A stretch of DNA of 64,000 bases. Source: Phycisphaerae bacterium (GTDB taxonomy: Bacteria; Planctomycetota; Phycisphaerae; WQYP01). The notes under the pieces are model-generated. The model did no database searches. It was not told the origin of the DNA and worked only from the letters and a program-made list of their open reading frames with translations. Positions 1,458-47,459 of the stretch are shown in pieces. The stretch's first letter is position 1; each line of letters begins with the position of its first letter. The DNA lies in contig JBMFGW010000001.1 of assembly GCA_049977145.1 (NCBI GenBank), positions 32,550 to 96,549 of the forward strand. The letters run 5' to 3'. Position numbers and translations under genes: made by a program.

Positions 1458-1463
1458 GCCAAA

Positions 1464-2225: not shown

Positions 2226-2297
2226 GCAATTTCATTCCTTTAAAGATCCAATCGTCACATTCCGATCCGGCCTCTACCGGTCGTCCCATGCTCAAAG

Positions 2298-3740
2298 TCA
2301 GCCTACACTGCCTTCCAAACTTACGCCAAGTAATTTTTGGGCTTCCACGGCAAATTCCATTGGCAACTCTCGAAATACTTCCTTACAGAAGCCGTTGATG
2401 ATCATATTCACCGCATCTTCCAGGGAAATGCCACGCTGCTTGCAGTAAAAAAGTTGATCTTCACCGATTTTGGAAGTTGAGGCTTCATGTTCCGCCTTGG
2501 AACTGGTGTTTCGCACTTCAATATATGGAAACGTATGGGCACCGCACTTATCGCCCAACAACAGCGAATCACACTGCGTGTAATTGCGGGCATTCGTGGC
2601 GTTTTTCAGTATCTTCACCAGACCGCGATAGGTGTTCTGTCCCTTACCCGCGGAAATACCTTTGGACACCACCGTGCTGCGGGTGTTTTTGCCGATGTGA
2701 ATCATTTTGGATCCGGTATCCGCTTGCTGCATGTTGTTGGTCAAGGCCACGGAATAAAATTCACCGATGGCGTTCTCTCCCTGCAAAATCACGCTGGGAT
2801 ATTTCCAGGTGATGGCCGAGCCGGTTTCCACCTGCGTCCAGGAAATGCGGGCGTTGTCCATACATTTTCCGCGCTTGGTGACAAAATTGTAAATTCCGCC
2901 CTTGCCTTCTTTATCGCCGGGATACCAATTTTGCACGGTGGAATATTTAATCTGGGCGCCTTTTAAGGCCACCAATTCCACCACCGCCGCGTGCAGTTGA
3001 TTTTCATCGCGCATCGGTGCGGTACAGCCTTCCAGATAACTGACATAAGCCCCTTCATCGGCAATAATCAAAGTGCGCTCAAACTGCCCGGTATCCTTGG
3101 CATTGATGCGAAAATACGTGGACAATTCCATGGGACAACGCACGCCCTTGGGAACGTAACAGAAGGACCCGTCGCTGAATACCGCGGAATTCAGAGTGGC
3201 ATAAAAATTATCCGAGTACGGCACCACTGACCCCAGATACTGGCGAATCAACTCCGGGTGTTTTTGCACGGCTTCGGAAAATGAGCAGAAAATCACACCC
3301 ATTTCGCCGAGTTTTTCTTTGAAGGTCGTGGCCACGGATACCGAGTCAAATACCGCATCGACCGCCACGCCGGCAAATATTTTCTGCTCTTCCAGCGGTA
3401 CGCCGAGTTTTTGATAAGTACGCAGCAATTCCGGATCGACTTCATCAAGACTTTTAAGTTGCTTTTTGGGCTTGGGGGCCGAATAATAAATAATGCCCTG
3501 AAAATCAATTTCCGGATACTTCACATGCGGCCACTTGGGTTCGGTCATGGTCAGCCAATGCCGAAAGGCTTTCAGCCGCCACTGCGTCATAAATTCGGGT
3601 TCATTTTTCCGTTTGGAAATCGCCCGGACTATATCTTCGTTGAGACCCTTGGGTAGGGAATCAGCGTCAATATCAGTAACGAAACCCCATTTATATTCCT
3701 GATTGGCCAGTGTTTCTATAGTGCCTTCATCTGTCGGCAT
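2298..3740 (-). CDS. sufB: Fe-S cluster assembly protein SufB
   Basis: Start [20 protein letters not shown] chosen at the internal ATG at 3740. About 480 aa with strong SufB-like sequence throughout. First gene of the suf operon. Confidence 0.9.
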
Positions 3741-3837
3741 AGTTATATCCCTTAAAACAAGCCACCCAATCCAGTTAGCCCGCTTGCACACGCCCGTCAA
3801 CAACTTTAATCATAGCGTATTAGAATGTTGATGTCAA

Positions 3838-10777: not shown

Positions 10778-11431
10778 TCATGTGGCGGGGAGAATATGGA
10801 CCGCCAGCCACGCCGCCACCGTGGCGGCATTCTGATCCGGCGGAAAAACCGGATAAAAAACGTGCTCCACTGTACCATCCTTGATCACCATCGTGAGACG
10901 TTTAAGCAACGTCATTCCTCCGGTTTCAAACGTCGGCAGACGCATGGCACTAGCCAAGATTAGATTGGCATCCGAAAGAATTGGAAATGGTAGATGCAAT
11001 CGCTCCGCGACTTCGCGCTGATAATCCGGGCTTTGTGTGGAAAGGCCAAACAAATGACGGATACCTAAGGTTTTCAACCACGCAAAATGATCTCGGAAAG
11101 CGCAGGATTGCGGCGTGCATCCGCGTGCGCCGGGAATCAAATCCCACCCGTCCGGATTTGCGATGCCGGGCTTTCCCGTCCGGGGATACGTATAGACCAC
11201 AACCCTGCCCGGTAGTGTGGACAGGTTCACCGTCGTGCCGTCGGTTGCGGCTAGCGCGATGGCCGGAATGCGCATTCCGACCAGATGTCGGGCCGCGCCG
11301 TCATCCACCGGTGCCGGAATTGTTGACCAATCAAGTGCTTCGATGGTGCGGTTCGTCCTGGCCTCTATTCTCGGTTTTAGCCGTTTTTCATCTGCGGTAA
11401 TTTTGCGCTTGGGGTTTTTCATTGCATTCAT
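10778..11431 (-). CDS. Peroxiredoxin (AhpC/TSA-redoxin family)
   Basis: Start MNAMKNPKRK at the internal ATG at 11431. Thioredoxin-fold redoxin domain (VVVYTYPRTGKPGIANPDGWDLIPGARGCTPQSCAFRD with peroxidatic Cys). Confidence 0.75.
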   Translation of the reverse strand: MNAMKNPKRKITADEKRLKPRIEARTNRTIEALDWSTIPAPVDDGAARHLVGMRIPAIALAATDGTTVNLSTLPGRVVVYTYPRTGKPGIANPDGWDLIPGARGCTPQSCAFRDHFAWLKTLGIRHLFGLSTQSPDYQREVAERLHLPFPILSDANLILASAMRLPTFETGGMTLLKRLTMVIKDGTVEHVFYPVFPPDQNAATVAAWLAVHILPAT

Positions 11432-11483
11432 TTCCGCATCGGCCAATAAGGGCAATCTCATGGGCCCCAGCCCGGTGTCATAT

Positions 11484-11834
11484 CTACGCAGCACGCAGAA
11501 ATTCCCGTAATGCCAATGCGCCGTTGTGTTCTTGATCGTGCGCGGCGTATACAAAGGTAACATCGCCCTTCTTGATATGTTGCCGCAAGGCTTCAACGGC
11601 GGACGGATTCTGCCGCAGTTCGTCCCAATACCGTTTTTTGAACTGCACCCATTTGGCCGGATCGTGGCCAAACCACTTTCGCAGCTCCGTACTGGGGGCC
11701 ACATCTTTGAGCCACAGGTCTATCGCGGCCTTTTCCCTGGTCAATCCCCGCGGCCACAGCCGCTCCACGAGAATCCGCAATCCGTCAGCGGTAGATGGTT
11801 CATCATAAACACGTTTGATTTGAATCTTAGTCAT
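11484..11834 (-). CDS. DUF488 (YeaO-like) family protein
   Basis: 116 aa. MTKIQIKRVYDEP...RILVERLWPRGLTREKAAIDLWLKDVAPSTELRKWFGHDP is canonical DUF488. Confidence 0.75.
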   Translation of the reverse strand: MTKIQIKRVYDEPSTADGLRILVERLWPRGLTREKAAIDLWLKDVAPSTELRKWFGHDPAKWVQFKKRYWDELRQNPSAVEALRQHIKKGDVTFVYAAHDQEHNGALALREFLRAA

Positions 11835-12622: not shown

Positions 12623-12901
12623 AACACATCTCCAACGCTCGAAAGCGGCGATACAGCTTCGTCCGCAACTTTCATAAGTCACTAAGTATACGCATCCGGG
12701 TTTTTATTGCAAGTATGACAGATGTGTGCGGCCATGTTTGTTTTAGCCAATGGTGCGAATTGCGGTAACGCGGCAGTGCCCATCGTCCTGGAGCTGGCAT
12801 GGATGCGGGTGCGCTTCAGTATTTTTGCCCAATAATATTATTCCCCCCCCCGCCACCGCTGGATTGACTGTATGCGGTGTAGTGCCTGCGGGTCCGGTAT
12901 A

Positions 12902-14062
12902 ATGGCAGTGATGATTTATCTGGACAATAATGCGACTACCCGGATAGCGCCTGAAGTTCTGGCATCTATGCGGCCCTTTCTGGAAGACAGTTATGGCAAT
13001 CCTTCCAGTGTACATCAGGCCGGGCAGGAAGCCCGGCATGCGGTTGAGGAAGCCCGCTATCAGGCGGCGGAATTCATCGGTTGCCGTCCGGCGGAAGTGA
13101 TATTTACCAGCGGCGGCACCGAAGCGGATAACGCGGCGGTATTGGGGGTAATGCCGGGACGGACAAAAAAAACAATCATCACCTCAACCGTGGAACATAG
13201 TGCAATTCGTGCGCCGACGGATTATCTGGCCAAGCATGGATATCGCGTTGTAACCATAGGGGTTGATGCGCTGGGACGGCTGGATATGGAGGCGCTACAT
13301 GCCGCACTGGCCGATCCCGATGCGGCGTTGCTGACCTTGATCTGGGTCAATAACGAAACCGGTGTGATTTTCGATGTGGATACAATTGGCGCTGCCGCCC
13401 GCACCCATGGTGTGCCGTTCCACGTGGATGCGGTGCAGGCGGCGGGAAAACTTCCGTTACGATTTTCCAGTCGGCCCATTGATCTATTGTCCGTCAGCGC
13501 ACATAAATTTCACGGTCCCAAAGGCGTGGGGGCCTTGGTCGTGCGGCGCGGTTTGGCCTATCAGCCGCTGATCCGCGGTGGTCCGCAGGAACGGGATCGC
13601 CGGGGCGGCACGGAAAATGTCGCGGGGATCGTCGGGTTAGGAGCGGCGGCGGCGCGGGCCACTGCCATGTTGGCGGAGTCTGGCTATATACAGCGCATAG
13701 CCACAATGCGGAATAAACTTGAGACGGGAATTTTGAATTCGGTTCCGGATTGTTATAGCATCGGGGATCCGGAAAACCGCGTGGCCAATACTACGAATAT
13801 CGGTTTTGCAGCGTTGGAAGCCGAGGCGATCCTGCTGCTGCTGAACCAGAACGATATTTGCGCCAGCGCCGGGGCGGCGTGTTCCAGTGGATCTCTTGAA
13901 CCATCCCATGTGCTCAAAGCCATGGGCATAGCGGAAAAAATTGCGCATGGTGCGGTGCGATTTTCATTATCTGAATTTACCACGGATGCGGACATAGAGC
14001 AGACGCTCCAAGTCATACCCCAGATCATCACCCGCCTGCGGCACGTCTTACCGGTGGGCTAA
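12902..14062 (+). CDS. Cysteine desulfurase, NifS/IscS class (PLP-dependent aminotransferase class V)
   Basis: MIYLDNNATTRIAPEVL, FTSGGTEADN, SVSAHKFHGPKGVGAL (PLP Lys), and ASAGAACSSG active-site Cys loop. Confidence 0.85.
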   Translation: MAVMIYLDNNATTRIAPEVLASMRPFLEDSYGNPSSVHQAGQEARHAVEEARYQAAEFIGCRPAEVIFTSGGTEADNAAVLGVMPGRTKKTIITSTVEHSAIRAPTDYLAKHGYRVVTIGVDALGRLDMEALHAALADPDAALLTLIWVNNETGVIFDVDTIGAAARTHGVPFHVDAVQAAGKLPLRFSSRPIDLLSVSAHKFHGPKGVGALVVRRGLAYQPLIRGGPQERDRRGGTENVAGIVGLGAAAARATAMLAESGYIQRIATMRNKLETGILNSVPDCYSIGDPENRVANTTNIGFAALEAEAILLLLNQNDICASAGAACSSGSLEPSHVLKAMGIAEKIAHGAVRFSLSEFTTDADIEQTLQVIPQIITRLRHVLPVG

Positions 14063-14198: not shown

Positions 14199-14328
14199 GT
14201 AACCGTTCACGGCCTTTCGGCCTTCCAAACTCGATATGCGTTCACGGCGGTACCACTCCCTTACGGTGCGGCTCGGCCTGCCGTTATGCGTGGTAGGTAC
14301 GCCCAAAACATCGTGCGTGAACGGTTAC
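14199..14328. mobile_element. MITE-like non-autonomous element (130 bp) with 14-bp terminal inverted repeats and 8-bp target-site duplication TGATAGAT
   Basis: Left end GTAACCGTTCACGG (14199-14212). Right end GCGTGAACGGTTAC (14315-14328), matching 13 of 14 as reverse complement. Direct repeats TGATAGAT at 14191-14198 and 14329-14336. No ORF inside. Related partial copies at 12055-12201 and 29806-29840. Confidence 0.6.
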
Positions 14329-14367: not shown

Positions 14368-15006
14368 TCATTTCTTCGCATTTTGATAAATTTCCGCAAC
14401 TTTGGTCCAGTTTACGACTTCCCACCAGTTTGCAATGTATTCGGGCCGTCGATTCTGATACTTGAGGTAATAAGCGTGTTCCCAGACATCCAACCCCAAA
14501 ACAGGCGTGCCGGAAAGTCCGCAGACCGTCTGCCCCATCAACGGATTATCCTGATTGGCCGTGGAACCTATGGTTAGCTTGCCGTCTTGGAGTACCAGCC
14601 AAGCCCAGCCGGAGCCAAACCGTTTGGCTGCGGCGTCGCTGAACCGTGTTTTGAATTCCGCAAAGGAACCGAACGTGGAGTTAATCGCCGCCGCCAAATC
14701 GCCCGTCGGTTCTCCACCGCCGCCCTTGCCCTTGGCGGCCATGATCTGCCAGAACATGGTATGGTTGGCGTTGCCGCCGCCATTATTCCGCACGGTAGTG
14801 CGGATATCCTCCGGGACTGCCGCCAAATTGCCAATTAAAGCCGCAAGAGATTTCGTCTCCAACGCGGGCTTTCCAGCAATCGCATTATTGAGATTGGTGA
14901 CATAACCGCCATGATGCTTGCCGTGGTGAATCTGCATGGTTTGCGTATCGATAATAGGTTCCAGCGCGCCAAAATCATACGGTAATGCAGGAAGTTGAAA
15001 AGCCAT
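14368..15006 (-). CDS. sod: Superoxide dismutase, Fe/Mn family
   Basis: [32 protein letters not shown] and DVWEHAYYL motifs. 212 aa. Confidence 0.9.
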
Positions 15007-23306: not shown

Positions 23307-25565
23307 ATGACTCCCCATCATCTACCCCCAACAATGATTACCAACCAAAGCGAAGATGGCGGCGTATCGGCACCGCACACACCGCAAAATACTCCACTCA
23401 CGCCATCGCGCCGTGATTTAATCAAATTTGGGGCACTGGCCATGATCGCGACTGGTGCTTTGACCGGATGCAGCGACGCCCGCACGAACGCGGCGGGTAA
23501 TGCCGGATTGACGGGCCAAACGGGAAACTCGACCACCGCGCGAGTCGATATGTGTATTGATCAGGCATGGAAATTTCTTAAGCAGGGTTTTCCTGGTGCG
23601 CAATGCCCCGATATGAACGATACCGCTTGGACCACGGTGGAATTACCACATACCTACAATGGTTTAGATGGGCAAACCGGGGCACCGTACTACCGCGGAC
23701 CGGCTTGGTATCGCAAAGAACTCGAGCTGCCAAGCGCTGCCAAAGAGCGGGATAAACAGGTTTTTCTTTATTTTGAAGGCGCGGGCATCACAACCGAAGT
23801 GTACTGCAATGGCCATCGAGCTGGTGGACACATTGGCCTGTTTGCAGGCTTTTGCGTGGATATCACCCCGTTTATTCAACACACAGGACGCAATGTCATC
23901 GCGGTACGCGTGGACAACGCCTACAACAATCACATTGCTCCATTGAACGGCGACTTTAATCTGGATGGCGGCCTGTATCGCCATGTCCGATTGCTGGTGC
24001 TGAACGCATTAAGCATCAGTCCCTTGGACGACGGCGGCCCCGGCGTATATATCAAACAGGTGAAAGTCACGCCGGAAAAAGCGGAACTGGAAGTCACCAC
24101 CTTGGTGCGTAATGCCTCATCTCAAGAAAAAACAGCGGGTGTTGGATACAGCATCTCCGATCACGCCGGAAATGTCATATTGACTGCTTCGGCGGCCCAG
24201 ATTGTGCCTGCGGGTCAAACATCCACATGTGTGCACAATATCGTATTGCCCAAGCCGCATTTGTGGAATGGTCGGGAAGACCCTTATCTGTATCAGATGA
24301 CTGTGGAAATCTTTGACAACGAGCAACGCACCGATAGTGTTACACAGCCACTGGGGCTTCGCTTTTACCATATCAACCCGGATCAGGGATTTTTTCTCAA
24401 TGGCAAATCTTATCCGCTGCGGGGTGTTTGCACCCATCAGGACCGACCGAATAAAGGGCGAGCCGTAAGTGATGCGGATTATCGCCAGGATTTGGACATC
24501 ATTTATGAAATTGGTGCCACCTGCGTGCGCATGGCCCATTATCAGCACGCGCAGGCCTCGTATGATGCAGCGGACAAACTTGGCATCGTGGTCTGGGCGG
24601 AAGACGGCCTGGTCAACGGTGTGGCGCATAATGAGGAATTTGATGCCAATCAGATACAACAGGTGCGTGAACTTATTAAACAGAATTTTAATCACCCGTC
24701 TATATGCTTCTGGAGCATGTATAACGAACTGGGAAATAACGGCCAGAACAACCTCGGCTATCGCCTGGTACAAAAAATTAATGCCGAAGCCAGACGGCTG
24801 GATCCCACCCGCCTGACCACTGCCGCCGACGATCAATCCCAGTACAACCATATCGGATATATCACGGATATTATCGCCTTTAACCGCTATCCGGGTTGGT
24901 ACGGCGGCAAGATGACAGACTTCCCCACCATCTTGGATGGCATTCGGAAAGTAGTGGAGGCTAAGGCTCCAGGCCGATGTATCGGCCTGAGTGAATATGG
25001 CGCTGGAGCCAGCATTTTCCAGCACGAATCGCATGTTACTCAACCCAACCCTGGTGCGTATTGGCATCCTGAAGAATATCAGGCACTGCTGCATGAACAC
25101 GCCTGGGCCGCAATTAAAGATCGCCCGTGGCTTTGGGGTACGTTTCTCTGGGTAATGTTTGACTTTGCCTCGGCATTTCGCCATGAGGGAGATCATCCCG
25201 GAAAAAATGATAAGGGACTTGTGACGCGCGACCGTAAAACCCGCAAGGATGCGTTTTACTTTTACAAAGCTCAGTGGACTAAAGAACCGTTTGTGTACAT
25301 CACGGATCGGCGATTTAATTGCCGGCCGGATCAACATGCCATCTTAAAGGTCTATGCCAATTGCGCCAGCGTGGAACTGATGCTCAACGGCCAATCATTG
25401 GGCAGGCAACAGGGGGTAAACGGTGTATTTGTCTGGCCGATGACGACGCTTAAAGAAGGCCAAAATCACATTCGCGCCATCGGCCAACATAATGCCGGAC
25501 AGGTGGAAGACGCGTGTGCAATTGTCTACGATCCGCGCGCGCCACATCGCGCAACGTATCGCTAA
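23307..25565 (+). CDS. Glycoside hydrolase family 2 (beta-galactosidase/beta-glucuronidase-like), TAT-secreted
   Basis: Start at internal ATG 23307. Twin-arginine signal SRRDLIKFGALAMIATGALTGCS. GH2 sugar-binding, Ig-like and TIM-barrel regions (NAYNNHIAP, WSMYNELG with catalytic acid Glu, LSEYGAGAS nucleophile region). Confidence 0.8.
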   Translation: MTPHHLPPTMITNQSEDGGVSAPHTPQNTPLTPSRRDLIKFGALAMIATGALTGCSDARTNAAGNAGLTGQTGNSTTARVDMCIDQAWKFLKQGFPGAQCPDMNDTAWTTVELPHTYNGLDGQTGAPYYRGPAWYRKELELPSAAKERDKQVFLYFEGAGITTEVYCNGHRAGGHIGLFAGFCVDITPFIQHTGRNVIAVRVDNAYNNHIAPLNGDFNLDGGLYRHVRLLVLNALSISPLDDGGPGVYIKQVKVTPEKAELEVTTLVRNASSQEKTAGVGYSISDHAGNVILTASAAQIVPAGQTSTCVHNIVLPKPHLWNGREDPYLYQMTVEIFDNEQRTDSVTQPLGLRFYHINPDQGFFLNGKSYPLRGVCTHQDRPNKGRAVSDADYRQDLDIIYEIGATCVRMAHYQHAQASYDAADKLGIVVWAEDGLVNGVAHNEEFDANQIQQVRELIKQNFNHPSICFWSMYNELGNNGQNNLGYRLVQKINAEARRLDPTRLTTAADDQSQYNHIGYITDIIAFNRYPGWYGGKMTDFPTILDGIRKVVEAKAPGRCIGLSEYGAGASIFQHESHVTQPNPGAYWHPEEYQALLHEHAWAAIKDRPWLWGTFLWVMFDFASAFRHEGDHPGKNDKGLVTRDRKTRKDAFYFYKAQWTKEPFVYITDRRFNCRPDQHAILKVYANCASVELMLNGQSLGRQQGVNGVFVWPMTTLKEGQNHIRAIGQHNAGQVEDACAIVYDPRAPHRATYR

Positions 25566-25788
25566 GTGTCCGAGTCATTAAGCTCATCCATGCGGCTGAC
25601 CGGCAAATTCATACTGCGGCGCAATTGTTTATCCGAATGTGGCCCTGACTGTCGACACGCCGGACATTGACGACTGTGGATGAATGCTTCCCGCATTTTA
25701 TAATACTCTTCATCCATCCGTTGACGCTCATAATCATACCCGCCTTTTTTATTAAAAAAAAATACGAAGTTGTTTTTTGCACTGCTGC

Positions 25789-26742
25789 TTACCGATGGTG
25801 GAAACGCACCGGGCCGCCGCAGACAAACAACTCGCCAAATCGTTCAATAACCCGCACTTTGTCGGCGGCGCACAGGCGATCCAATACGCCGCGAAAATCC
25901 AATCCGGAAACCTGCCGTGCGGCTACTTCCAGTTCCTGGAGCCGCAGAGGATGGCGTGAGACGATGTTGCAAATTTGATCTTCCAGCGCGTCCGTGCGGC
26001 TTAAGCTGAGAACCAACTCGGATTTGGAGGTCAGACGCGCCATCGGCCCCAGAATCGCCTGTACTCTTACCAGACTTTCCACGTCGGGTGGGTGAACAAA
26101 CTTTTCCGCGGGGCACCGTGTGGGCAGCGTTAAATGCACTTCATCCGGCCCGATCGTGGCCAGCACTGCGGCCAGTTCGCGTAAGGCTGATTCAGTATCG
26201 TTAAGTCCCGCGACCAGCATGACTTCAATCCACAATTTCGCGTGTCGTTGCATGTGGGCGAAAGCCGTTAACCCCGCCACATGCCGGGCGAATGTAAACT
26301 GTGGATGCGGACGATTAATCCGGCGGAAAAGCTCGGATGAACCCGCATCCAGCGTGGGCAGTACGGCGTCGGCGGCAGCGAGTTGTGCCCGTATCGCAGG
26401 CTGATCCAACATGGATCCATTGGTAATTACCGCGACGGGAAAAGGACTTAACGCTTTAACCGCCTGAACCATTTCGCCAATCCGGTGGTGCAACGTGCCC
26501 TCGCCGGAGGCTACGAAAGTAACCCAGTCAATGTCCGGCGGCGGCACGGACTGCAACGCTTTTTGCACTTCGTCAAGAATTTCGTTTGTGGGCAGGTATT
26601 CACGCCTGGCACTTACCACCGGCATGCTGCGTCCCAGTTGGCAGTACACACAGTTCCAATTACAGGTTTTTAATGGCACCGTATCAATACCCAGAGATCG
26701 GCCCAGGCGGCGCGACGGCACAGGCCCAAAAACATATTTCAT
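25789..26742 (-). CDS. Radical SAM protein (COG0731-like Fe-S oxidoreductase), first visible member of the Fe-S ATPase cluster
   Basis: N-terminal GPVPSRRLGRSLGIDTVPLKTCNWNCVYCQ with a Cx3Cx2C radical-SAM motif. 317 aa. No SPASM extension. Confidence 0.75.
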   Translation of the reverse strand: MKYVFGPVPSRRLGRSLGIDTVPLKTCNWNCVYCQLGRSMPVVSARREYLPTNEILDEVQKALQSVPPPDIDWVTFVASGEGTLHHRIGEMVQAVKALSPFPVAVITNGSMLDQPAIRAQLAAADAVLPTLDAGSSELFRRINRPHPQFTFARHVAGLTAFAHMQRHAKLWIEVMLVAGLNDTESALRELAAVLATIGPDEVHLTLPTRCPAEKFVHPPDVESLVRVQAILGPMARLTSKSELVLSLSRTDALEDQICNIVSRHPLRLQELEVAARQVSGLDFRGVLDRLCAADKVRVIERFGELFVCGGPVRFHHR

Positions 26743-26907
26743 GGTTTATGATCCGCCTGTAACATCAATAATATCCCATAACGTCCGATCCGCAGGCATC
26801 TGATTCGTTGATACTTCATCATGACCAATGCCCCGCATTGCCGCATTTCCGCCCGCCTCCAGCGGGTTTTAGTAGTCTAACACTATCCCATCGCATCCAA
26901 ACACAAT

Positions 26908-27792
26908 TCATTCTACACGCAATTTATCAGCCACTGTCCGCCAAATCCGGCGCACATCCTCACCGGCCTCCGTGAAGCGCATTTCCACCACAGCCTGGCG
27001 TTGTCGCTGCGCTGCGTTGAACACCGAATCCACACGCACACGCCCGGCCGGTGTAACGTTATTTTGTCTGGCGCTATTTTCAATATCCATTGTTTGTGCC
27101 GGATTAAGATCCCAACGATTCACGCATAGCATGACCGGAATGTTAAAGTGTCTGGTAAGAGCTGTAACCCGTTGCATATCATGCCAGCCGCTTGGCGTAG
27201 GTTCTGTGACAATCAATACGAGACTGGCGCGGGCCACTGTGGCAATCACCGGACAGCCGATGCCGGGAGGACCATCGACAATTAGTAGCGTGGCCGCAGT
27301 GGCCGCGGCTATGGAATGCGCTTTTTGCCGAACCTGGCTGACCAGTTTTCCGGAATTTTCACCACCAGGTCCCAATTGGGCGTGAACCAGCGGTCCAAAC
27401 CGGGTGGTGGAAACAAACCATTGGCCCGCGAGAACCGGCTCCAAGGTAATGGCGTTGTTGGGACAAACCTGCAAACACGCTCCACAGCCTTCACAAGACA
27501 TTGGAAGGACGCGGCACGGCGCGTTGTCATCGGTGCCGCGCGCTATAGCCTCAAATCGGCAGACGTTCTGGCAGGCCCCGCAACCATCACACCGGTGGTA
27601 ATCAATTTTGGCGTGATGCCCTTGAAAAAAATCGTGGCGTTCTTGTACCGTTGGATTGAGAATAATTGGCAGATCAGAGGCATCGACATCGCAATCCGCC
27701 AGCACGGCGGTGCCGGCCAGTGCCGCAAATGACGCCACCAGCGAAGTTTTTCCTGTTCCGCCTTTACCACTGATAACTACCAATTCTCTCAT
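26908..27792 (-). CDS. MinD/Mrp-family P-loop ATPase with inserted double 4Fe-4S ferredoxin domain (COG1149-like)
   Basis: Start MRELVVISGKGGTGKTS (deviant Walker A) at ATG 27792. Two CxxCxxCxxxCP motifs (CDGCGACQNVCRF, CEGCGACLQVCPNN). 4-bp ATGA overlap with the upstream paralog. Confidence 0.75.
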   Translation of the reverse strand: MRELVVISGKGGTGKTSLVASFAALAGTAVLADCDVDASDLPIILNPTVQERHDFFQGHHAKIDYHRCDGCGACQNVCRFEAIARGTDDNAPCRVLPMSCEGCGACLQVCPNNAITLEPVLAGQWFVSTTRFGPLVHAQLGPGGENSGKLVSQVRQKAHSIAAATAATLLIVDGPPGIGCPVIATVARASLVLIVTEPTPSGWHDMQRVTALTRHFNIPVMLCVNRWDLNPAQTMDIENSARQNNVTPAGRVRVDSVFNAAQRQRQAVVEMRFTEAGEDVRRIWRTVADKLRVE

Positions 27793-28655
27793 GACGTTTC
27801 TCCCTTTACCCATGCCAGCAGTTCCGTGAAAAGGCTTTCCATGGCCACCCGGAATTCCGGAACGCCATGAATTGGCATTTCTCCACGGGCATAAGCCTCG
27901 GCCACACGGCGGTCCGCGGATACCTGCGCTAAAATCGGAATATCATGGACTTGACACCAGTTGACCATCTCCCGTGTGGGGCCGTCCACGCGGTTGAGCA
28001 CTGCGGCCGCACGCATACCGAGCATTCGTACCATTTCCACGGCCAATGTGAAATCATGAAATCCAAAAGGAGTGGCCTCGCCCACGAGTAAAACAGCATC
28101 GCTGCCGCGTGCTGTTTCCACAGTGGGGCAGGAAGTTCCCGGCGGCGCATCTTTCAGAATAATTTCCGCAGGCGGGGCCGCGGCCTTGACCTGCCGCACA
28201 ATGGGTGTCGCCATGACCTGTCCGACATCCAACCGGCCTTGCACAAAACCAAGCAACCCCGCATGGCCACGTTCCACCACACCGCTTCGATGCGGAACCT
28301 CTTTGATGGCGTGGGCCGGGCAGGCCAGCATACAGGCCCCGCAGCCATGGCAAAGATCAGCGTTCACCATCACAAAATGACCTAGGCAAATAATGGCGCT
28401 GAAATGACAGGCCTGGCCGCAGCGCCCGCATACACCAGCCGCGCGACACACTTTTTCATCCACCTCCGGAACGGCGATATTCACAATTTCCTGTCCGGTG
28501 ATTACTGGATGTAAAAACAAGTGACCATTGGGTTCTTCCACATCACAGTCAAGATAGGCAACGGATAGTCCGCGTTGTACGCCAATAGCCGCAAGGCTTG
28601 TCGCAATGGTGGTTTTTCCCGCGCCGCCTTTGCCGCTGGCTATCGCAATTTTCAT
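27789..28655 (-). CDS. MinD/Mrp-family P-loop ATPase with inserted double 4Fe-4S ferredoxin domain (paralog)
   Basis: Start MKIAIASGKGGAGKTT at ATG 28655. The long ORF upstream of this Met is unlikely. Two ferredoxin Cys motifs (CGRCGQACHF, CHGCGACMLACPAHA). Confidence 0.75.
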   Translation of the reverse strand: MKIAIASGKGGAGKTTIATSLAAIGVQRGLSVAYLDCDVEEPNGHLFLHPVITGQEIVNIAVPEVDEKVCRAAGVCGRCGQACHFSAIICLGHFVMVNADLCHGCGACMLACPAHAIKEVPHRSGVVERGHAGLLGFVQGRLDVGQVMATPIVRQVKAAAPPAEIILKDAPPGTSCPTVETARGSDAVLLVGEATPFGFHDFTLAVEMVRMLGMRAAAVLNRVDGPTREMVNWCQVHDIPILAQVSADRRVAEAYARGEMPIHGVPEFRVAMESLFTELLAWVKGETS

Positions 28656-28666
28656 GTACCGGGTTC

Positions 28667-28969
28667 CTATTTCGGCGTGGACGCCGGCGGAGATTCCTGT
28701 AGTTTCCGCGCCATATTCTGTACCGTTTCGGTCAACTGTTGCACTTGTTGTTTGAGGTCCGCGATATCCGCACCGGTGGCCGACGAAGACGACAATGACG
28801 GCGGGTTGGACCGTGCCGGCTCTGTTGCCAGTTGGCCCATGGCGTTCCATATACGACGACGTCCACCACCCATACACGAATTGGTATTCCCGGTTTGACG
28901 ACATCGGCCCATTCCGCGTCCGTTATGCGGTCCGAGTCCGTTGGGCCCTGTTGCATCCATTTGTGGCAT
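28667..28969 (-). CDS. DUF5320-family protein (Gly/Arg-rich N-terminus plus C-terminal coiled coil)
   Basis: MPQMDATGPNGLGPHNGRGMGRCRQTGN... followed by the coiled-coil ADIADLKQQVQQLTETVQNMARKLQE. This architecture commonly accompanies the ferredoxin-MinD ATPases. The stop is 12 bp before the next gene. Confidence 0.55.
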   Translation of the reverse strand: MPQMDATGPNGLGPHNGRGMGRCRQTGNTNSCMGGGRRRIWNAMGQLATEPARSNPPSLSSSSATGADIADLKQQVQQLTETVQNMARKLQESPPASTPK

Positions 28970-29008
28970 AAACTGTTACTCCTTATTTTTTGCAGTCGAT
29001 GAGCGACC

Positions 29009-29365
29009 TTATTTTGCTACTGTTTCTTCTTGGCATACCCGATGCTCATATAACAATCGGGCGGCGGTGCTTACGCACTGCACACACGACATAGCACGAT
29101 GAGTTCGGATATCCCGGCACTTCGTGAAACCACCCGAAGCCGCCGCAAAAGCTGCCTCTATTTGGGCGGCACGTTCCGGCCCGGCGATTAACTTGGCCGC
29201 ATAAAGTGCGCCACAAGTGCCATCCGGAGCACGGCCATGGCCGCAGGCGTGCAGATGTTCATACTCTTCACAGTTGGCGGACATTTTCTCACACCAGGAA
29301 TGCGCCACCGATTGCGCACAATTACCCTGCCTGGCGCGAAAGAATGATACAGCTCGTTCAACCAT
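29009..29365 (-). CDS. C_GCAxxG_C_C family putative redox-active protein
   Basis: 118 aa with RARQGNCAQSVAHSWCEKM (GCAxxG motif) and a C-terminal Cys pair (CVQCVSTAA). Confidence 0.6.
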   Translation of the reverse strand: MVERAVSFFRARQGNCAQSVAHSWCEKMSANCEEYEHLHACGHGRAPDGTCGALYAAKLIAGPERAAQIEAAFAAASGGFTKCRDIRTHRAMSCVQCVSTAARLLYEHRVCQEETVAK

Positions 29366-29412
29366 AATTAGCTATCCTTTTATTTTATTGGCATTGTATT
29401 TGCAAGCGGAAC

Positions 29413-29757
29413 TCATCGTAGAGGATTCAGCCGCCCCTGCTTAAACTGCTCAACCGCCTGTTGCACCGTGCTGCCGCCGGCAACCTGAAGCACGTGAATC
29501 CCCGCCGCTTGCAGCGCAGCAAGCGCCTTCGGGCCAACATTACCAGTAATAACCGTTGTGGCTCCGGAATCAACAACCGTCTTGACGGTTTGAATACCGG
29601 CACCTTGCGCTGCGGATTGATTGCCTGCGTTATCACTGGTACTGACCGCTCCGTTGTCTAAGTCAACAATCACAAAACAACTCGCCCGTCCAAAACGAAG
29701 ATCAACGCCGGATTGCAATCCCGGTCCGCTGGCGCTAATGGCAATTTTCACAACCAA
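29413..29757 (-). CDS. Dinitrogenase FeMo-cofactor biosynthesis family protein (NifX/NafY/NifB-C-terminal-like, PF02579)
   Basis: 114 aa: VKIAISASG...ASCFVIVDLDNG...VKTVVDSGATTVITGNVGPKALAALQAAGIHVLQVAGGSTVQQAVEQFKQGRL. TTG/GTG start, so the exact start codon is uncertain. Confidence 0.7.
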   Translation of the reverse strand: MVVKIAISASGPGLQSGVDLRFGRASCFVIVDLDNGAVSTSDNAGNQSAAQGAGIQTVKTVVDSGATTVITGNVGPKALAALQAAGIHVLQVAGGSTVQQAVEQFKQGRLNPLR

Positions 29758-29805
29758 TTCCTTCCATGTTCATATCGCCATACATTACCCGCCATTAACT
29801 ACCGG

Positions 29806-29840
29806 GTAACCATTCACAGCCTTTCGGCCAGTCAAACTCG
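29806..29840. repeat. Left-end relic of the same MITE family (gtaaccattcacagcctttcggccagtcaaactcg)
   Basis: Matches the left TIR and the first roughly 35 bp of the element at 14199. Located in the divergent intergenic region between the NifX-like gene and addB. Confidence 0.35.
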
Positions 29841-30223
29841 CCACGAGTTTGGCTTATAAATAAATTGTATTCCGCCCCTAACGGAAATCAAATTTCTTCC
29901 AATAACAACTTAAACAAAAGTTTTGAATTTTGCGCTATCCATCTGATAAAGGAATTATGATCAAAGGACTACTCAAAACGGCATGGATATACAGAACAAG
30001 CCTATCAGCAGCGTAACGCTGAGCTGAATTTACAGAACACGACCTTGGAATCGCGTGTCACCGATTTCACACGGCAACTCGTCCAGCATGATGCCGTGAT
30101 TGGTAAACTGGGCGCACAATTGGCCAGCGCAATACGGGTGTAACACACCCGCGACACGTCCTTGCGTTTAATCCATCTTGGGTTATGTTCAACGTATGTT
30201 GGTATCTGGTGCGGGACGGGGTT

Positions 30224-33200
30224 ATGGCGGTACAGTTTGTCATTGGCCGGGCGGGGACGGGAAAAACGCAATTTTGCGTCGATGCACTGGTCGCGGAATC
30301 ACGCGGCGATCCACTGGGACCGCCCCTATTTTGGCTCATGCCGGAACAGGCAACGTTTATGTCCGAGCAGCGGCTGCTGGCGACGCCGGAGATGGCTGGA
30401 AGTTTTCGCATCAGGGTGCTGGGGTTTCGGCGTCTATGCCGCTTTCTGACAGCGGAATTGAACCTGCCGTTGGGACTGGAAATTTCCCCCACAGGCCGGC
30501 AACTGCTGCTGGCCCGCGCCGTGTTGGCATGCCGAGATCAATTGACGGTCTATCGGCCCGTAGCGGAATTGCCCGGGTTTCTGGCCTGCCTGGATCAGAC
30601 ACTGCGGGAATTTATGCAGGGCCGACAAAACGCGGAACAGTTGCGGGCAGCGGCCGCGCAACTTTATGCCCAGACACAACGCCGGGGCACACCTGCAGAG
30701 CCTGGGGAATCCGTACTGGCGGATAAACTCCATGATCTGGCGTTATTACTGGAGAGCTGGGAGCAGGTGAAACCCGTTGGCAGTTGGGACGGCGAAACAC
30801 TCCCGATGATTCTGGAAAATGGCTTGGCAGACCAACAGCATCTGCATGGCGTATCCATTTATGTGGATGCCTTCAGTTCCATGAGCGCAATGGAAATCCG
30901 TCTTTTAACGCTGCTGGCGAATAAAGTGGCCACCATGGTCATCACTCTGCTGGCTGATCCGACCAGTCCAGCGATAGTCCACCCCGGCATGGCACCGGCC
31001 ACGCTGGGCGTATTTCATCGCACGGAACAGTTGTATCAACGGTTGCTGCGGCATCTGCAAGCTTCCGGAGCAACCATTGAAAAAACGCGATTTCTGCACA
31101 CCTTCCACCGCGGCGCGCGATCCCCGGCACTGGGCCATATAGAATCGCAGCTTTTCAGCAGCGCGCCGCCTCCGTCCACCAACGTGGCGGCCACGGGCGC
31201 GGTGGAATTATTGTCCTGTCCATCACCGGAAGAAGAGGTGCTGTGCGCCGGGCGACGAATTCGCGCTATGGCGGCGGCGGGGTTGCGCTACCGCGAGATC
31301 GGCGTGATCGTCAGTGATCTGACCCGCTATGCCCCATTGATCCGTCCCACATTTACGGCTTTGGAGATTCCCTTTTTTCTCGATCAGCGGCAAAGCCTGA
31401 AATTTCATCCGCTGGTGGAATTGCTGCACAGCGTCACCGCACTGGTGCACAACGGGTTTTCCCGGGCGGACCTGCAATCGCTGATCAAGACCTCTCTGAC
31501 CGGTCTGTCGGATGCGGAGGCCTGCAGCCTGGAAAATTATTTTCTCGCCCATGGCATAACCGCGGATACATTACAATCTGATTGGACTTGGGATCAACTG
31601 CCTGCCGATGCACAAGCTGATCAACCCTCCGCCAGCGATCAGGCGCATTTGGCGAGCATAAACGCCGCGCGCCGACAATTGCGCGCGGCACTGGAACCGT
31701 GGATCACACGCGCCGCCGCCCCCGATCGGCCGCAGCCTATTGCCGCATTTTCCGCCTCGCTGGTGCAATTACTGGAGAATATGCGGACCGGCGCAGTCAT
31801 GGAGCAATGGATCAACAAGGCCTTGGCGGATGGTTTACCGGAATTGGCGCAAATCCATGAACAGGCGTGGGCGCAATGCCGGGATATGCTCCAGGAAATG
31901 TCCACACTGCCCAGCAATCACACCATGACACTTTCGGAATTTTCCGAATTACTGCGGACGGTACTGGAGAATTTCACGCTGGGCCTGATCCCGCCCGCGG
32001 TGGATCAGGTCCTGATCAGTTCCGCCCAGCGCTCGCGGCATCCGGAATTAAAGGCAGTGCTGGTTCTTGGCGCGCTGGAAACGCTGATGCCCAAAGCCAC
32101 AACGGAAGATGCCATGCTCAATGACGCCGACCGCCGCCGACTTAAAACAATCTTCGGCGATGCGCTGCATGCCGATACGGCGGATGACTTTATGGAAGCG
32201 TCATTTTTCGACTATGTAGCCTTTACGCGTGCCAGCAACACATTACTAATCAGTTATCCCGCCGCTGATGCGGACGGGCGGAAAACCGCACCGAGTATTT
32301 ACATCAGTCGCATAAGGGGTTTGTTTTCCGATCTTACTGTACGCTCATTGGAATCCACGGATGTGCAGTGGACGGATTTTGCGGCTCTGGATGAATTAAT
32401 CCGCTGGGTGTTGCTGACCGGGGAGACTGCCGCCGCCGGCGCTGCCGAAAACAGTTGTCCGACGCCGGCCCGCACGGCGGCGCAATGGTTGCGGTCCAAT
32501 CGGGATTTAGCAGTCCGGCGGCGCTGGGAACAGGCCATTGCGGCACAAAGCCGCGTTGATATTGCAGAGTTGCCTGCCGAATTGGGCCGGTTCGGACTGG
32601 GTTCCGCGATTGTAAGTGTCAGCGAATTGGAAACTTTTGCCGCGTGCGCATTGCGGCATTTCTACAGCTATACGCTGCATCTGCGGGAGCGCCCTGAATG
32701 GCAAATGGATGCGCGTAATCTGGGCACTGTGTATCACCAGGCGCTGGACCTGTTCTATCACGCGGTAATCAGCGGCCAACTGCCATGGCCCGATTGCCAG
32801 GAAAACCAATTGCAGCAGACGCTGACAGATGCTATTAAAGAAAGCACACGGAGCCTTGCGGCGGACGCTATCGCTGCGGCCACGGAATTGCAGGCTGTTA
32901 TCCAACCCATGCGGCGGCATCTGGGTATTATTCTTGAAGCACAGCGCCGCGCCGCAGAGATTAATAAACTTCGGCCTGTCGCAACGGAATTAAGGTTTGG
33001 CAGATTTCCGCATACCGAATCAGGAACGCCAATCTTACCGCCCATTTCGCTGGCTGTACGCGGGAGCACGCCGCTGGAACTGCGCGGCAAAATTGATCGC
33101 GTGGATATGGATGGGGCCGGAAACGTCATGCTCATTGATTACAAATCCAGCGCTAAGAATTTCAAACTCGGCTTATTTGTACATGGACTGGATTTGCAGT

Positions 33201-43815: not shown

Positions 43816-46188
43816 TTATTTGGCACCCCACTTCCAGTTGCGAATTTCCGGCAGGTCCTGACCATGCTGGTCGATATACCGCTTATGCGCAATGAGTTTG
43901 TCGCGGACCATCTGTTTGATATAAGCCGCCTTGGCCCCCAACTTGGGCAGGCGATCCACCACATCCTGCACTAGATGAAAACGATCCATATCATTAAGTA
44001 CCGTCATATCAAATGGAGTGGTGATGGTCCCCTTTTCCTTATACCCGCGGACGTGCAAATTGTGGTGATTATTGCGGCGATAAGTCAAACGGTGAATCAG
44101 CCAGGGGTAGCCGTGGAAGGCGAAAATAACGGGCTTATCCGTGGTAAATAGCGAATCAAAATCCGCATCACTGAGCCCATGGGGGTGTTCACTGCTGGGC
44201 TGAAGTTTCATTAAGTCCACAACGTTAATGACGCGAATTTTCACATCGGGTAATTCGTGCCGGAGAATGGAAACGGCGGCCAATATCTCCAACGTCGGAA
44301 CGTCACCGGCGCAGGCCATGACCACATCAGGATCGGCTCCATTATCATTACTGGCCCATTTCCAGATACCGATACCTTCCTGGCAATGTATCGCCGCCGC
44401 TTCGATAGGTAGCCACTGCGGGGCCGGATGTTTTCCCGCGACAATCACATTAACGTATTGTCTGCTGCGCAGGCAATGATCCATAACGGACAGCAGACAA
44501 TTGGCATCGGGCGGCAGATACACCCGCACCACATCAGCTTTTTTGTTAACCACCACATCCAGAAAGCCCGGATCCTGATGCGTAAAGCCGTTATGATCCT
44601 GCCGCCAGACATGCGATGAAAGCAGATAATTCAGCGAGGAAATATCCACCCGCCACGGCAGGTTATCCGTAACTTCCAGCCACTTGGCATGTTGATTAAA
44701 CATAGAATCCACAACATGAATAAATGCTTCATAGCAGTTAAACACGCCGTGTCGCCCGGTCAGCAGATACCCCTCCAGCCAGCCTTCACACTGGTGCTCA
44801 CTGAGCATGGAATCCAGCACCCCACCGGATGTCGCAAGAAATTCATCATTGGGCACCGTGCGCGCATCCCATTGACGATTGGTGAAATCAAATATGGCCC
44901 CCAGACCGTTGGAGAGCGTTTCATCCGGGCCGAATAGACGAAAATTCCGCGGGGCCGCATTGAGCTTGGCCACATCGCGCAAAAAAGGCCCCAGAACGCG
45001 CGTATCGCCGATGCCGCCGATGCCCGGTGCGGGAACCTGCACAGCATAGTCACGGAACTCCGGCATCCGCAAATCCCGCAGCAAGATGCCGCCGTTGGCA
45101 TGGGGATTGGCTCCCATACGCCGCTGCCCTTTGGGGGCAAGATCAGCGATTTCCGGCTTCAATCTTCCCTGGTCATCAAAAAGTTCTTCCGGATGATAGC
45201 TTTTCATCCAGGCTTCAAGCATCTTGAGGTGCCCGGGATTTTTGGCTGGATCAGACAGCGGCACCTGATGGGCACGAAACGTTCCTTCCACAGGCAAACC
45301 GTCGATTACTTTCGGCCCCGTCCACCCCTTGGGAGACCGCAGCACAATCATGGGCCAGCGCGGGCGCATGGAGTTGCCCTGCGTGCGGGCCTCATGTTGA
45401 ATGTGCCGGATGCGCTCTATGGCCGCATCCAGTGCCGCAGCCATCGCTTCATGCATCAGAGCCGGGTCATCGCCTTCAACAAAATACGGTGACCAGCCAT
45501 AGCCGCGCAGCAACTGTTCCAATTCCTCAGGTTCAATTCGTGCCAGAACCGTGGGGTTGGAAATTTTGTATCCATTGAGGTGCAGAATCGGCAAAACCGC
45601 CCCATCGGTTTTGGCATTGAGAAACTTATTGGAATGCCAGCTTGTTGCCAGCGGACCGGTTTCCGCTTCACCATCTCCAACCACGCAGGCGGCAATAAGA
45701 TCAGGATTATCAAACACTGCTCCAAAAGCATGGCTGATGGAATAGCCCAGTTCGCCCCCTTCATGGATGGACCCCGGTGTTTCGGGCGCGGCGTGGCTGG
45801 GAATTCCGCCGGGGAATGAAAATTGTTTGAAGAGTTTTTTCAGCCCCGCTTCATCTTGGCTGATATTGGGATAAACTTCGCTGTAGGTCCCCTCCAGATA
45901 TACGTTACCCACCACGGCCGGACCGCCATGCCCAGGCCCGGACAAGTAGATCATGTCCAGATCATATTTGTTAATCACACGGTTAAGATGCGTGTAGATG
46001 AAATTTTGGCCCGGTGTGGTACCCCAGTGGCCCAGAAGCATGGGTTTGACGTGCTCGATGGCCAGCGGCTTTTTCAGCAGCGGATTATCATAAAGATATA
46101 TCTGCCCAACCGAAATGTAATTACCCGCCCGCCAATAGGCATCCAATTTGGCGAGCATTTCCGGAGAAAGTGTCGTGGTGGTCATCAT
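43816..46188 (-). CDS. xfp: Xylulose-5-phosphate/fructose-6-phosphate phosphoketolase
   Basis: 790 aa. N-terminal [26 protein letters not shown]...[20 protein letters not shown], and [18 protein letters not shown]-binding motifs. Confidence 0.9.
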
Positions 46189-47459
46189 TATTTTCCTTTC
46201 ATCTGAACTTTAAGTAAACGAACAACAGAACGTGCGATCATCAGGTCTTCATCAGTATGGATAACGCGAACAGATACTGCCGCATCAGGCGCGGAAATCA
46301 ACGGGGCATTCTTCATGTTGCGCGAGCCATTAAGGCGAATGCCGAGAAAGGCCAGGTCCTGACAAATGCGCTGACGAATCACGGGGGAGTTTTCACCGAT
46401 TCCGCCGGCGAATACCAGTGTGTCTACACCGCCCAGGGCGGCGGCAAAAGCGCCAATCCATTTTTTGGCTTGATAACAGAACATGTCCAGCGCCAAGGCG
46501 GCGCGTCGATCCGTTGCTTCTTTGGCCAGCAGATCGCGCACATCCGGACTGGTCCCTGACACCCCAAGCAAGCCGGAATCATGATTGATCATGTGCTCAA
46601 ATTGAACCGTGGTGAGGTTTTCAATCCGCGCCAGGTAGGAGACGATTCCCGGATCTAAATCTCCCGAGCGGGTGCTCATCATCAATCCGGCAGCCGGCGT
46701 AAAGCCCATGCTGGTATCAATGCTTTGGCCATCCCGAATGGCGGCCAGGCTGGCTCCATTGCCAAGGTGTGCGAGAATGACCCGGCCTTTTTTGGCCGCC
46801 GGATCACCAAGTCGCACCAGTTCTTCCATCAGGAAGGCATAAGACAGGCCATGAAAGCCATAGCGTCGTATCCCTTTGGCCGCGTAGCGTCTGGGAATTG
46901 GCAGCAATTTTGCGATTGGCGGCATGGTGTGATGGAAGGCGGTGTCAAAGCAGGCGACCTGCGGAAGTTTTGGGTACTGTTGGCGAAAGGCCTGGATCAA
47001 TTCGATTTCACGCGGCAAATGATCCGGATCATAAGGGGCCAGACGATGCAATTCGGCGAGTAACGCGGTAGATACCCGCTGCGGTTTGGAATGTTTCATG
47101 CCGTGAACCACGCGGTGTCCGACAGCCTTGATGGAGGAAAACACCGGTTGTACCGCCAAGTAATGCAAAAGATGGTTGGCCGCCGAACCATGAGTATCAG
47201 CCTGGATGCGATGACTGCATTGCGACTTGCCGTACGGATCATGCACGGCAAAAATAGTGCCACTAAGACCAATGCGATCAATTTTCCCATCCATCGTCCG
47301 TCGAAGTGACGAGCCTGTTTCGTACAGGGCAAATTTGATGCTTGATGAGCCGGCGTTAATGGTGAGAATCGTGGACAACTGGGGTATTACCCGGCGGGAT
47401 AGGTCCCGTGTGGTAATTGAGTCCGCTGTCGATTTGACTGTTGTTGGATGTTGTGACAT
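46188..47459 (-). CDS. ackA: Acetate kinase
   Basis: [20 protein letters not shown]-binding motif plus further AckA blocks ([35 protein letters not shown]). 1-bp overlap with xfp. About 30-aa N-terminal extension if the ATG at 47459 is used. Confidence 0.9.

Follow-up and report, generated by a model that had tools for sequence, protein, structure and literature searches.

The DNA considered here is a 64,000-nt stretch, hereafter the window, from a Phycisphaerae bacterium (assembly GCA_049977145.1, contig JBMFGW010000001.1, positions 32,550-96,549 of the forward strand); positions given without a locus name refer to this window. Its minus strand carries, at 25789-29757, six open reading frames (ORFs) that all run in one direction. 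We compared these genes with the orange protein (ORP) complex locus of Desulfovibrio, of which they are likely a reduced version. An original prediction had listed them as six co-directional genes of named families. The genes are real, and Pfam profile searches bore out the family assignments of five of the six proteins and gave a score just below the cut-off for the C_GCAxxG_C_C-like one.

The first gene (29413-29751) encodes the ORP, an Orp8-type protein of 112 aa with a single PF02579 domain of the NifX/NafY/IssA superfamily (78 bits). The second (29009-29365) encodes a small cysteine-rich protein of 118 aa that resembles the C_GCAxxG_C_C family (PF09719, 24.9 bits), and the third (28667-28969) a DUF5320 protein of 100 aa (PF17253, 47.1 bits). 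They are followed by two ATPases, corresponding to the Orp3/Orp4-type paralogues a and b: ATPase 1 (27789-28655, 288 aa), with Pfam matches to CbiA, ParA and Fer4, and ATPase 2 (26908-27792, 294 aa), which matches Fer4 twice as well as ParA and CbiA. The last gene (25789-26742) encodes a radical S-adenosylmethionine (SAM) enzyme of 317 aa (PF04055, 50 bits). The same block of six genes lies by addAB on a contig of another Phycisphaerae metagenome-assembled genome (MAG; GCA_049966755.1, locus L001), at 97.6-99.4% nucleotide identity per gene. For the ORP, the start codon is the GTG at 29751, with an alternative TTG at 29757; the counterpart gene in L001 was called at 112 aa. The start of ATPase 1 at 28655 is Met84 of a longer ORF and is supported by an alignment with 13 orthologues. 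The GC content of the block is not distinct from that of its surroundings.

The genes had been described as tightly packed. This holds for the ATPase genes, where the start of ATPase 2 at 27792 overlaps the stop of ATPase 1 by 4 nt (ATGA), as predicted; the orthologues in L002, a Phycisphaerae-related locus whose ATPase 1 is 69% identical to that of the window, likewise overlap by 4 nt. The packing is not uniform, however: the gaps among the first three genes are 47 and 39 nt, DUF5320 and ATPase 1 are 11 nt apart, not the 12 bp given before, and a spacer of 165 nt (26743-26907) separates ATPase 2 from the radical SAM gene. Scans of this spacer for promoters, terminators and RNA families detected none. 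It is identical in L001 at 165/165 positions, which is not significant at such divergence.

In Desulfovibrio vulgaris Hildenborough (DvH), the ORP complex consists of Orp3, Orp4, Orp5, Orp8 (ORP) and Orp9 (MrpORP) (PMC6345978). Orp3 and Orp4 resemble one another and have two [4Fe-4S] ferredoxin motifs apiece; together with Orp8 they co-purify, with Fe-S clusters accepted from MrpORP (PMC6345978). The carrier protein of the window fits the Orp8 role. Its best solved relative is the ORP of Desulfovibrio (Megalodesulfovibrio) gigas (2WFB; E 1.2e-24, residues 2-108, 107 residues aligned), to which it is much nearer than to other PF02579 structures, and it is a small single-domain PF02579 protein like this homologue. 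The term uncharacterised that had been applied to the gene set does not suit an ORP complex locus, since such loci have been studied in Desulfovibrio since 2011 (PMC6345978, PMC8359166).

The two ATPases are adjacent, paralogous P-loop proteins, each with a deviant Walker A motif (SGKGGAGKT in ATPase 1) and a ferredoxin-type insert that holds two four-cysteine motifs of the 4Fe-4S type. The eight ferredoxin cysteines are invariant in 82 orthologues of ATPase 1 and in 76 orthologues of ATPase 2. Two inserts of the form CxxCxxCxxxCP had been predicted for each ATPase; two four-cysteine motifs are indeed present in each, but the exact form occurs in only two of the four. The first motif of ATPase 1 reads Cx5CxxCxxxC-H as a result of a 3-residue insertion in this lineage, the other three are CxxCxxCxxxC, and the first motif of ATPase 2 ends in C-R.

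Further conserved cysteines lie outside these motifs. In ATPase 1 they are Cys37, Cys176 and Cys234 (cysteine in 99%, 100% and 84% of the orthologues), and in ATPase 2 Cys34, Cys180 and Cys223 (71%, 100% and 71%). Each ATPase has an invariant cysteine seven residues past the switch II aspartate (DAPPGTSC and DGPPGIGC). This spacing presumably equals that between Asp125 and Cys132 of NifH, a correspondence that we use only as a lead; when the PDB was searched with the C-terminal half of this protein (ATPase 1) for a residue-level alignment to NifH or BchL, nothing above noise was obtained.

The AlphaFold model of ATPase 1 has a predicted local distance difference test score (pLDDT) of 93. Of the solved structures, those nearest to it in fold are archaeal MinD, FleN, ATPase-type HypB, Cfd1 and ApbC, and no structure matched in the fold search contains the insert of about 95 residues. 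These matches raise the question of whether the proteins are ordinary MinD/ParA ATPases with a role in positioning or division, as was initially proposed for Desulfovibrio. In sequence as in fold, the ATPase core matches archaeal MinD best; DvH with inactivated OrpR has morphological defects, and MrpORP is polar (PMC8359166, PMC6345978). However, the ATPases score far under the cut-offs of the corresponding models (minD_arch, 48 vs 202 bits; minD_bact, 20.9 vs 213; ParA_partition, 48.5 vs 180), and the block contains no minC, minE or parB partner. Ferredoxin inserts, as well as the association with PF02579 and Mrp genes, point to metal-sulfur chemistry, and the authors of the Desulfovibrio work themselves term the role 'still unclear' (PMC8359166). 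We thus consider a division role very improbable. An identity as Mrp or ApbC was also rejected, with 34 vs 450 bits for the MrpORP model and 21 vs 348 bits for ApbC. Iterated ATPase and Mrp profiles cross-recruit, and paralogues were assigned by the best-scoring profile and BLASTP.

The bridge to the Desulfovibrio system was made by searching with the 2WFB sequence, which led to loci encoding relatives that are 68-75% identical. In these loci the ORP gene is directly followed by two Fer4-containing CbiA ATPase genes, a second PF02579 gene and a gene for a cysteine-rich Zn-ribbon protein. With such a locus, L085, the ORP of the window shares 50% identity, and the ATPases pair reciprocally: ATPase 1 is 43% identical to the first ATPase of L085 (ATPa) and 29% to the second (ATPb), whereas ATPase 2 is 46% identical to ATPb and 34% to ATPa. 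The window therefore encodes the core of ORP and twin ATPases, the latter being ancient paralogues in a conserved order. A direct connection of the two ATPases is seen in a Myxococcales MAG (L015:9992-11827), where they are fused in frame into a protein of 611 aa with a linker of about 45 residues. Both this fusion and the 4-nt overlap of the genes support the notion that the ATPases act as a heterodimer, as does the published finding that Orp3, Orp4 and Orp8 co-purify.

To place the block among related loci, one genome per species was scanned, which gave 80 loci that were scored with profiles made from proteins of the window and L002. They come from Planctomycetota, Desulfobacterota, Chloroflexota, Bacillota, Acidobacteriota, Verrucomicrobiota, Ignavibacteria, Armatimonadota and other phyla, which agrees with the claim that similar gene sets recur in anaerobes. 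Components were counted in the 41 loci that extend for at least 5 kb to either side, and the fractions are to be read as indicative. ATPase 2 adjoins ATPase 1 in all 41, and an ORP-type PF02579 gene is found in 39. DUF5320 is present in 31 loci, an Mrp ATPase in 26, a second PF02579 type in 22, an OrpR-like enhancer-binding protein (EBP) in 13, the radical SAM orthologue and Lactamase_B in 12 each, and C_GCAxxG in 2. The near-universal core consists of ORP and the two ATPases; DUF5320 is common, the radical SAM gene occurs in about 30% of the loci and C_GCAxxG is rare. The expectation that the six genes are conserved as a block is thus correct for the core, which is kept together, but not for the radical SAM and C_GCAxxG genes.

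All six families of the window are found in one locus of a Verrucomicrobiota genome (L080). The gene order in L002 is OrpR-like EBP, DUF4405, two PF02579 genes, DUF5320, a membrane protein, ATPase 1, ATPase 2, MrpORP, 4HBT, Lactamase_B, a Thi4-like gene and radical SAM. The membrane-looking protein (L002:3848-4567) is hydrophobic, unannotated and about 200-240 aa long, has no Pfam match at E <= 0.001, and recurs in orp loci of several phyla (L005, L013, L077, L080 and L081).

Several components of the published system were searched for in the window. Neither MrpORP/Orp9, in which an Mrp ATPase is joined to a PF02579 domain (tblastn with the L002 protein), nor the Zn_ribbon_8 protein of L085 (tblastn) had a match in the 64 kb, and a second, Orp7-like PF02579 gene was also not found there; MrpORP is present in close relatives. 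The Zn-ribbon protein of L085-type loci is probably Orp5. In Desulfovibrio, two divergent orp operons require sigma-54, IHF and the redox-sensing activator OrpR (PMC6345978, PMC8359166), and in DvH expression is on at about -425 mV and off at about -280 mV (PMC8359166). A tblastn search with the L002 and L085 proteins found no OrpR or other EBP homologue in the window. OrpR has been described as seemingly restricted to delta-proteobacteria (PMC8359166). We observed OrpR-like sigma-54 activators beside orp genes in MAGs of Planctomycetota, Hydrogenedentota and Ignavibacteria (L002:304-1638, L006, L008, L011, L021, L065 and L069); their PAS motif, Cx8Cx3C, has the same spacing as C52, C61 and C65 of DvH OrpR.

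The upstream intergenic region of the block (29752-30184) is shared with the divergent addB gene and contains one sigma-70-type hexamer pair (29891-29864) that precedes the ORP gene by about 110 nt and is not above chance; the scan for terminators and promoters gave nothing exceeding the expectation from shuffled sequences. On the coding (minus) strand upstream of the block there was no match to the sigma-54 -24/-12 motif, and a scan of the whole window gave 41 matches vs 46 expected, i.e., below chance. The OrpR palindrome had no match in the window at up to 3 mismatches. With OrpR, its binding site and a sigma-54 promoter all absent, the locus is probably transcribed from an ordinary sigma-70-type promoter. 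A sigma-54-like -24/-12 sequence with one mismatch (TGGCATTGTATTTGCA) lies at 29389-29404 between the ORP and C_GCAxxG genes, on the plus strand and thus opposite to the genes. In L002, GGCA…TTGC/TCGC sites resembling sigma-54 promoters occur at 1865-1880 and 2691-2706, 25-40 nt upstream of the DUF4405 gene and the first PF02579 gene; the number of such sites in this locus, 13 vs 8.6 expected, is not significant. An Rfam search over 25500-30400 gave only a chance miRNA match.

The same upstream region had been assigned a relic of a miniature inverted-repeat transposable element (MITE; 29758-30223), taken as a hint of recent rearrangement. The repeats are too weak to support this, consisting of imperfect inverted repeats of 10-12 nt and one 35-nt stretch with a match elsewhere. 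That stretch (29806-29840), which shares part of its sequence with an 11-nt hairpin (29830-29854), is 86% identical to 14199-14233, downstream of the superoxide dismutase (SOD) gene; either a short REP-like element or chance may account for the similarity. The spacer upstream of the ORP gene is collinear in L001 and 95.2% identical, and we found no sign of rearrangement in this comparison. Between addB and the ORP gene, the plus strand holds one open frame at 29960-30140, for which a start codon was not found; its translation is coiled-coil-like and ends in …EQAYQQRNAELNLQNTTLESRVTDFTRQLVQHDAVIGKLGAQLASAIRV before the stop.

The three remaining proteins of the block vary more among loci. The DUF5320 protein is a clear family member (PF17253, 47.1 bits over residues 1-92, threshold 27). 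It shares with the consensus of 32 locus-derived sequences the motif MPxxDxTGPxGxGPxxGRGxGxC at the N-terminus and a coiled coil (heptad region) at the C-terminus, but lacks the Gly/Arg-rich middle part present in most relatives. The score of the 118-aa protein with PF09719 is under the Pfam gathering cut-off of 27, and its homologues in L069 and L080 pass it (35.5 and 35.4 bits).

The radical SAM enzyme is a member of its superfamily, with the CX3CX2C site formed by C27, C31 and C34. These are its sole invariant cysteines, and cysteines for auxiliary clusters are not conserved in the orthologue alignment. The model (pLDDT 82) shows a small core and a helical C-terminal domain with a winged-helix-like look, and its fold matches are generic for the superfamily: the pyruvate formate-lyase (PFL) activating enzyme, NifB, RlmN and TYW1. 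No NCBIfam model comes close to its cut-off. TYW1/wyosine synthase was rejected (TIGR03972, 28.8 vs a cut-off of 318), the COG0731 label 'wyosine synthetase' being an automatic JGI annotation of homologues. NifB was rejected as well, given that no nifB match occurred among the NCBIfam hits, only C27, C31 and C34 are invariant, and the C-terminus is rich in helices instead of being a PF02579 domain.

The distribution of this enzyme bears on whether it belongs to the ORP system at all. Same-strand orthologues with 53-64% identity occur no more than 8 kb from the ATPases in 18 of the 80 loci, from at least 8 phyla (the L002 copy is 64% identical), and in five of these (L044, L048, L051, L054 and L081) the gene sits between the twin ATPase genes. 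The DUF5320 gene co-occurs with it in 16/18 positive loci vs 38/62 negative ones (Fisher p = 0.04, uncorrected and confounded by truncated loci). On the other hand, the family is large, with more than 7,700 homologues at E <= 1e-10, and in four loci anchored on it (L088-L091) the twin ATPases are absent. These loci contain genes for Mrp/ParA, PF02579, DUF5320, Lactamase_B, Zip, a cation-efflux-PF02579 fusion, ferritin, CobW, SufBD and AhpC, and the radical SAM family therefore belongs to a wider metal/Fe-S neighbourhood of anaerobe-type genomes. The 165-nt spacer ahead of the gene and the presence of C_GCAxxG in only 2/41 loci would also fit if the radical SAM gene, perhaps along with the C_GCAxxG gene, adjoined the ORP system here without belonging to it. 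We find this unlikely in view of the placement of the orthologues near and between ATPase genes, the Mrp, PF02579, DUF5320 or Lactamase_B genes that even the four anchored loci hold, and the position of the C_GCAxxG gene between DUF5320 and ORP in L080. The ORP core is not defined by the radical SAM gene, which accompanies it as an accessory.

A more ambitious role for the enzyme is that of an unrecognised catalytic member of the system, a small single-cluster protein resembling PFL activase that would act on a protein partner or on the species carried by ORP. The conserved glycine-rich N-terminus of DUF5320 could be its substrate. This idea is speculative and improbable; if it is true, the block would make a new post-translationally modified protein or a new metal-sulfur cofactor specific to very reduced anaerobes.

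The presence of a radical SAM enzyme, a carrier and ATPases had suggested a self-contained cofactor assembly line like NifB/NifX/NifH. In such a line the radical SAM enzyme would build or remodel a metal-sulfur cluster, the ATPases would serve as NifH-like reductase or insertase, and ORP would ferry the product to a client enzyme. The recurrence of the radical SAM gene inside ORP loci, in five cases between the ATPase genes, is in line with this, as would be the presumed NifH-like cysteine spacing, a lead only. PF02579 is moreover the carrier domain of NifX, NafY, the C-terminal part of NifB and IssA (PMC8351635). Against it, the three SAM-cluster cysteines leave the enzyme without NifB-style substrate-cluster sites, there was no nifB match and no approach to a curated cut-off, and the fold matches are generic. 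About 70% of the ORP loci lack the radical SAM gene, which makes it non-essential to the core function, and the ATPase fold is nearer to MinD, Mrp and HypB than to NifH. A client metalloenzyme, as postulated for the block, is neither adjacent in the window nor recurrent in the 80 loci. The lack of auxiliary cluster sites, the many loci without the radical SAM gene and the missing client disfavour a NifB-like assembly line, which we regard as quite unlikely.

The host is represented by a Phycisphaerae MAG, and the closest relatives of the ATPases are from Phycisphaerae and other Planctomycetota MAGs. The window encodes SufB, SufC and SufD (108-3803), a redoxin/AhpC-TSA protein of 308 aa with a long N-terminal extension (10778-11704), a class-V aminotransferase resembling cysteine desulfurase (12872-14062) and an Fe/Mn SOD (14368-15006), all within 15 kb. 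The presence of SOD, redoxin and SufBCD genes had been correctly noted, and had been taken to indicate an unusual host for such a cluster. SOD, peroxiredoxins and SUF are common in anaerobes, and Desulfovibrio also has SOD. Adjacent genes for phosphoketolase (XFP) and acetate kinase (43816-47459) suggest a fermentative phosphoketolase pathway, and together with several glycoside hydrolases encoded in the window they fit a fermentative polysaccharide degrader. No respiratory oxidase was noticed among the annotated ORFs of the window. Peroxiredoxin or SufBD genes also adjoin the same radical SAM family in other genomes. With these fermentation genes, the Planctomycetota relatives and the Fe-S and peroxide-defence neighbours elsewhere, the host context does not appear unusual.

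Taking identity and the proposed ATPase-heterodimer and carrier mechanism together, we consider it likely that the six genes are a reduced Phycisphaerae version of the Desulfovibrio ORP complex locus, i.e., a real system of a known kind. Beyond family identity and co-conservation, the steps of the mechanism are those that we infer. ATPase 1 and ATPase 2 would form an ATP-dependent heterodimer, the nucleotide cycle of which would gate electron transfer via the four [4Fe-4S] sites or, alternatively, control when ORP is loaded with, or releases, a metal-sulfide species that it holds non-covalently. The DUF5320 and C_GCAxxG_C_C proteins, together with the radical SAM enzyme and its single cluster, would be accessories of this process that vary among lineages. 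A role in handling metal-sulfur species is the natural reading of the gene set, as was proposed before. The statement that no definite function has been assigned also holds for Desulfovibrio.

A number of points weigh against this assignment. All support for the locus in this organism comes from comparison of sequences and models, and the orthology to Orp3 and Orp4 rests on loci with 75%-identical relatives of D. gigas ORP instead of on the DvH sequences. The 80 loci were those that matched a single ATPase alignment best and are not an unbiased census. The Orp5-like protein and MrpORP of the complex, the Orp7-like protein of the operons and OrpR were not found in the 64 kb, and therefore a complex of the same composition cannot form from the window locus alone. 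NifH-type proteins are absent from the top 50 structural matches of ATPase 1, any role of the extra conserved cysteines is one that we only infer, and the radical SAM gene, at 165 nt distance, could have its own transcript.

A related explanation is that sulfidic, very reduced cells use the system to store, buffer or detoxify metal sulfides, with the ATPases powering loading and unloading. Candidate species are Fe-S or thioferrate, as in IssA, and thiomolybdate/copper, as in the D. gigas orange protein. Non-covalent metal-sulfide species are carried by ORP-family proteins (PMC6345978), IssA of the same superfamily stores thioferrate (PMC8351635), and expression in DvH occurs only at about -425 mV (PMC8359166). 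Elsewhere, genes of the radical SAM family, PF02579, Mrp and DUF5320 accompany Zip permeases, a cation-efflux-PF02579 fusion, ferritin, CobW and a TonB-dependent receptor. The window, however, has no linked transporter, and its ORP is a 112-aa single domain far closer to D. gigas ORP than to other PF02579 structures. Since storage overlaps with the ORP carrier mechanism instead of excluding it, we keep it as a minor possibility.

The ORP system occurs widely among anaerobes, is associated with very low redox potential and has been linked to morphological defects in Desulfovibrio. A single locus adds little to this, and it is the comparison that yields three leads. First, there is a defined core of ORP and two ancient paralogous Fe-S ATPases, which are naturally fused in one genome. 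Second, one radical SAM family recurs in the operons of at least 8 phyla and is a candidate catalytic partner. Third, OrpR-type redox regulators with the same cysteine motif reach well beyond the delta-proteobacteria. The minimal six-gene version without a sigma-54 promoter could be suitable for heterologous reconstitution.

Comparison with known systems shows which features are shared. Archaeal MinD is the best sequence and structure match of the ATPase core (1G3Q, 1HYQ and 1ION), but the window ATPases carry about 95 residues of ferredoxin and beta-hairpin insert, reach only 48 of the 202 bits and have no Min partners. Mrp, NBP35, ApbC, Cfd1 and ATPase-type HypB have the same fold class, are among the top structural matches and are often co-encoded in the loci elsewhere; these proteins lack an inserted ferredoxin domain, the window ATPases are far below their family cut-offs, and no Mrp gene is present in the window. 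With NifB, NifX/NafY and NifH the locus shares a PF02579 carrier, a SIMIBI-class ATPase with deviant Walker A motif and a radical SAM enzyme in the neighbourhood. It differs in that the radical SAM enzyme lacks auxiliary-cluster ligands and a nifB match, and no nitrogenase lies nearby; NifH lacks ferredoxin inserts, whereas the window ATPases fold like MinD and Mrp and carry them. IssA of Pyrococcus furiosus belongs to the same PF02579/IPR003731 superfamily and holds inorganic metal-sulfide species instead of a cysteine-ligated cluster. The window protein is a 112-aa single domain nearest to ORP, and the cationic C-terminal tail of IssA (PMC6345978) was not noticed in it, with no formal examination made.

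The differences from the Desulfovibrio orp system lie in organization and composition. The window genes all run in one direction instead of forming two divergent operons, and the 64 kb are without OrpR, a sigma-54 promoter, the OrpR palindrome, a second PF02579 gene, MrpORP and a Zn-ribbon-type cysteine protein. The window adds DUF5320, the C_GCAxxG_C_C-like protein and the radical SAM enzyme, and the first cluster motif of ATPase 1 has its 3-residue insertion. What the two systems have in common is an ORP-type PF02579 protein, with 2WFB as the nearest solved structure, next to two adjacent paralogous P-loop ATPases with two four-cysteine ferredoxin motifs each. Both are found in hosts of anaerobe-type lineages, and close relatives of the window carry MrpORP and an OrpR with the same Cx8Cx3C PAS motif.

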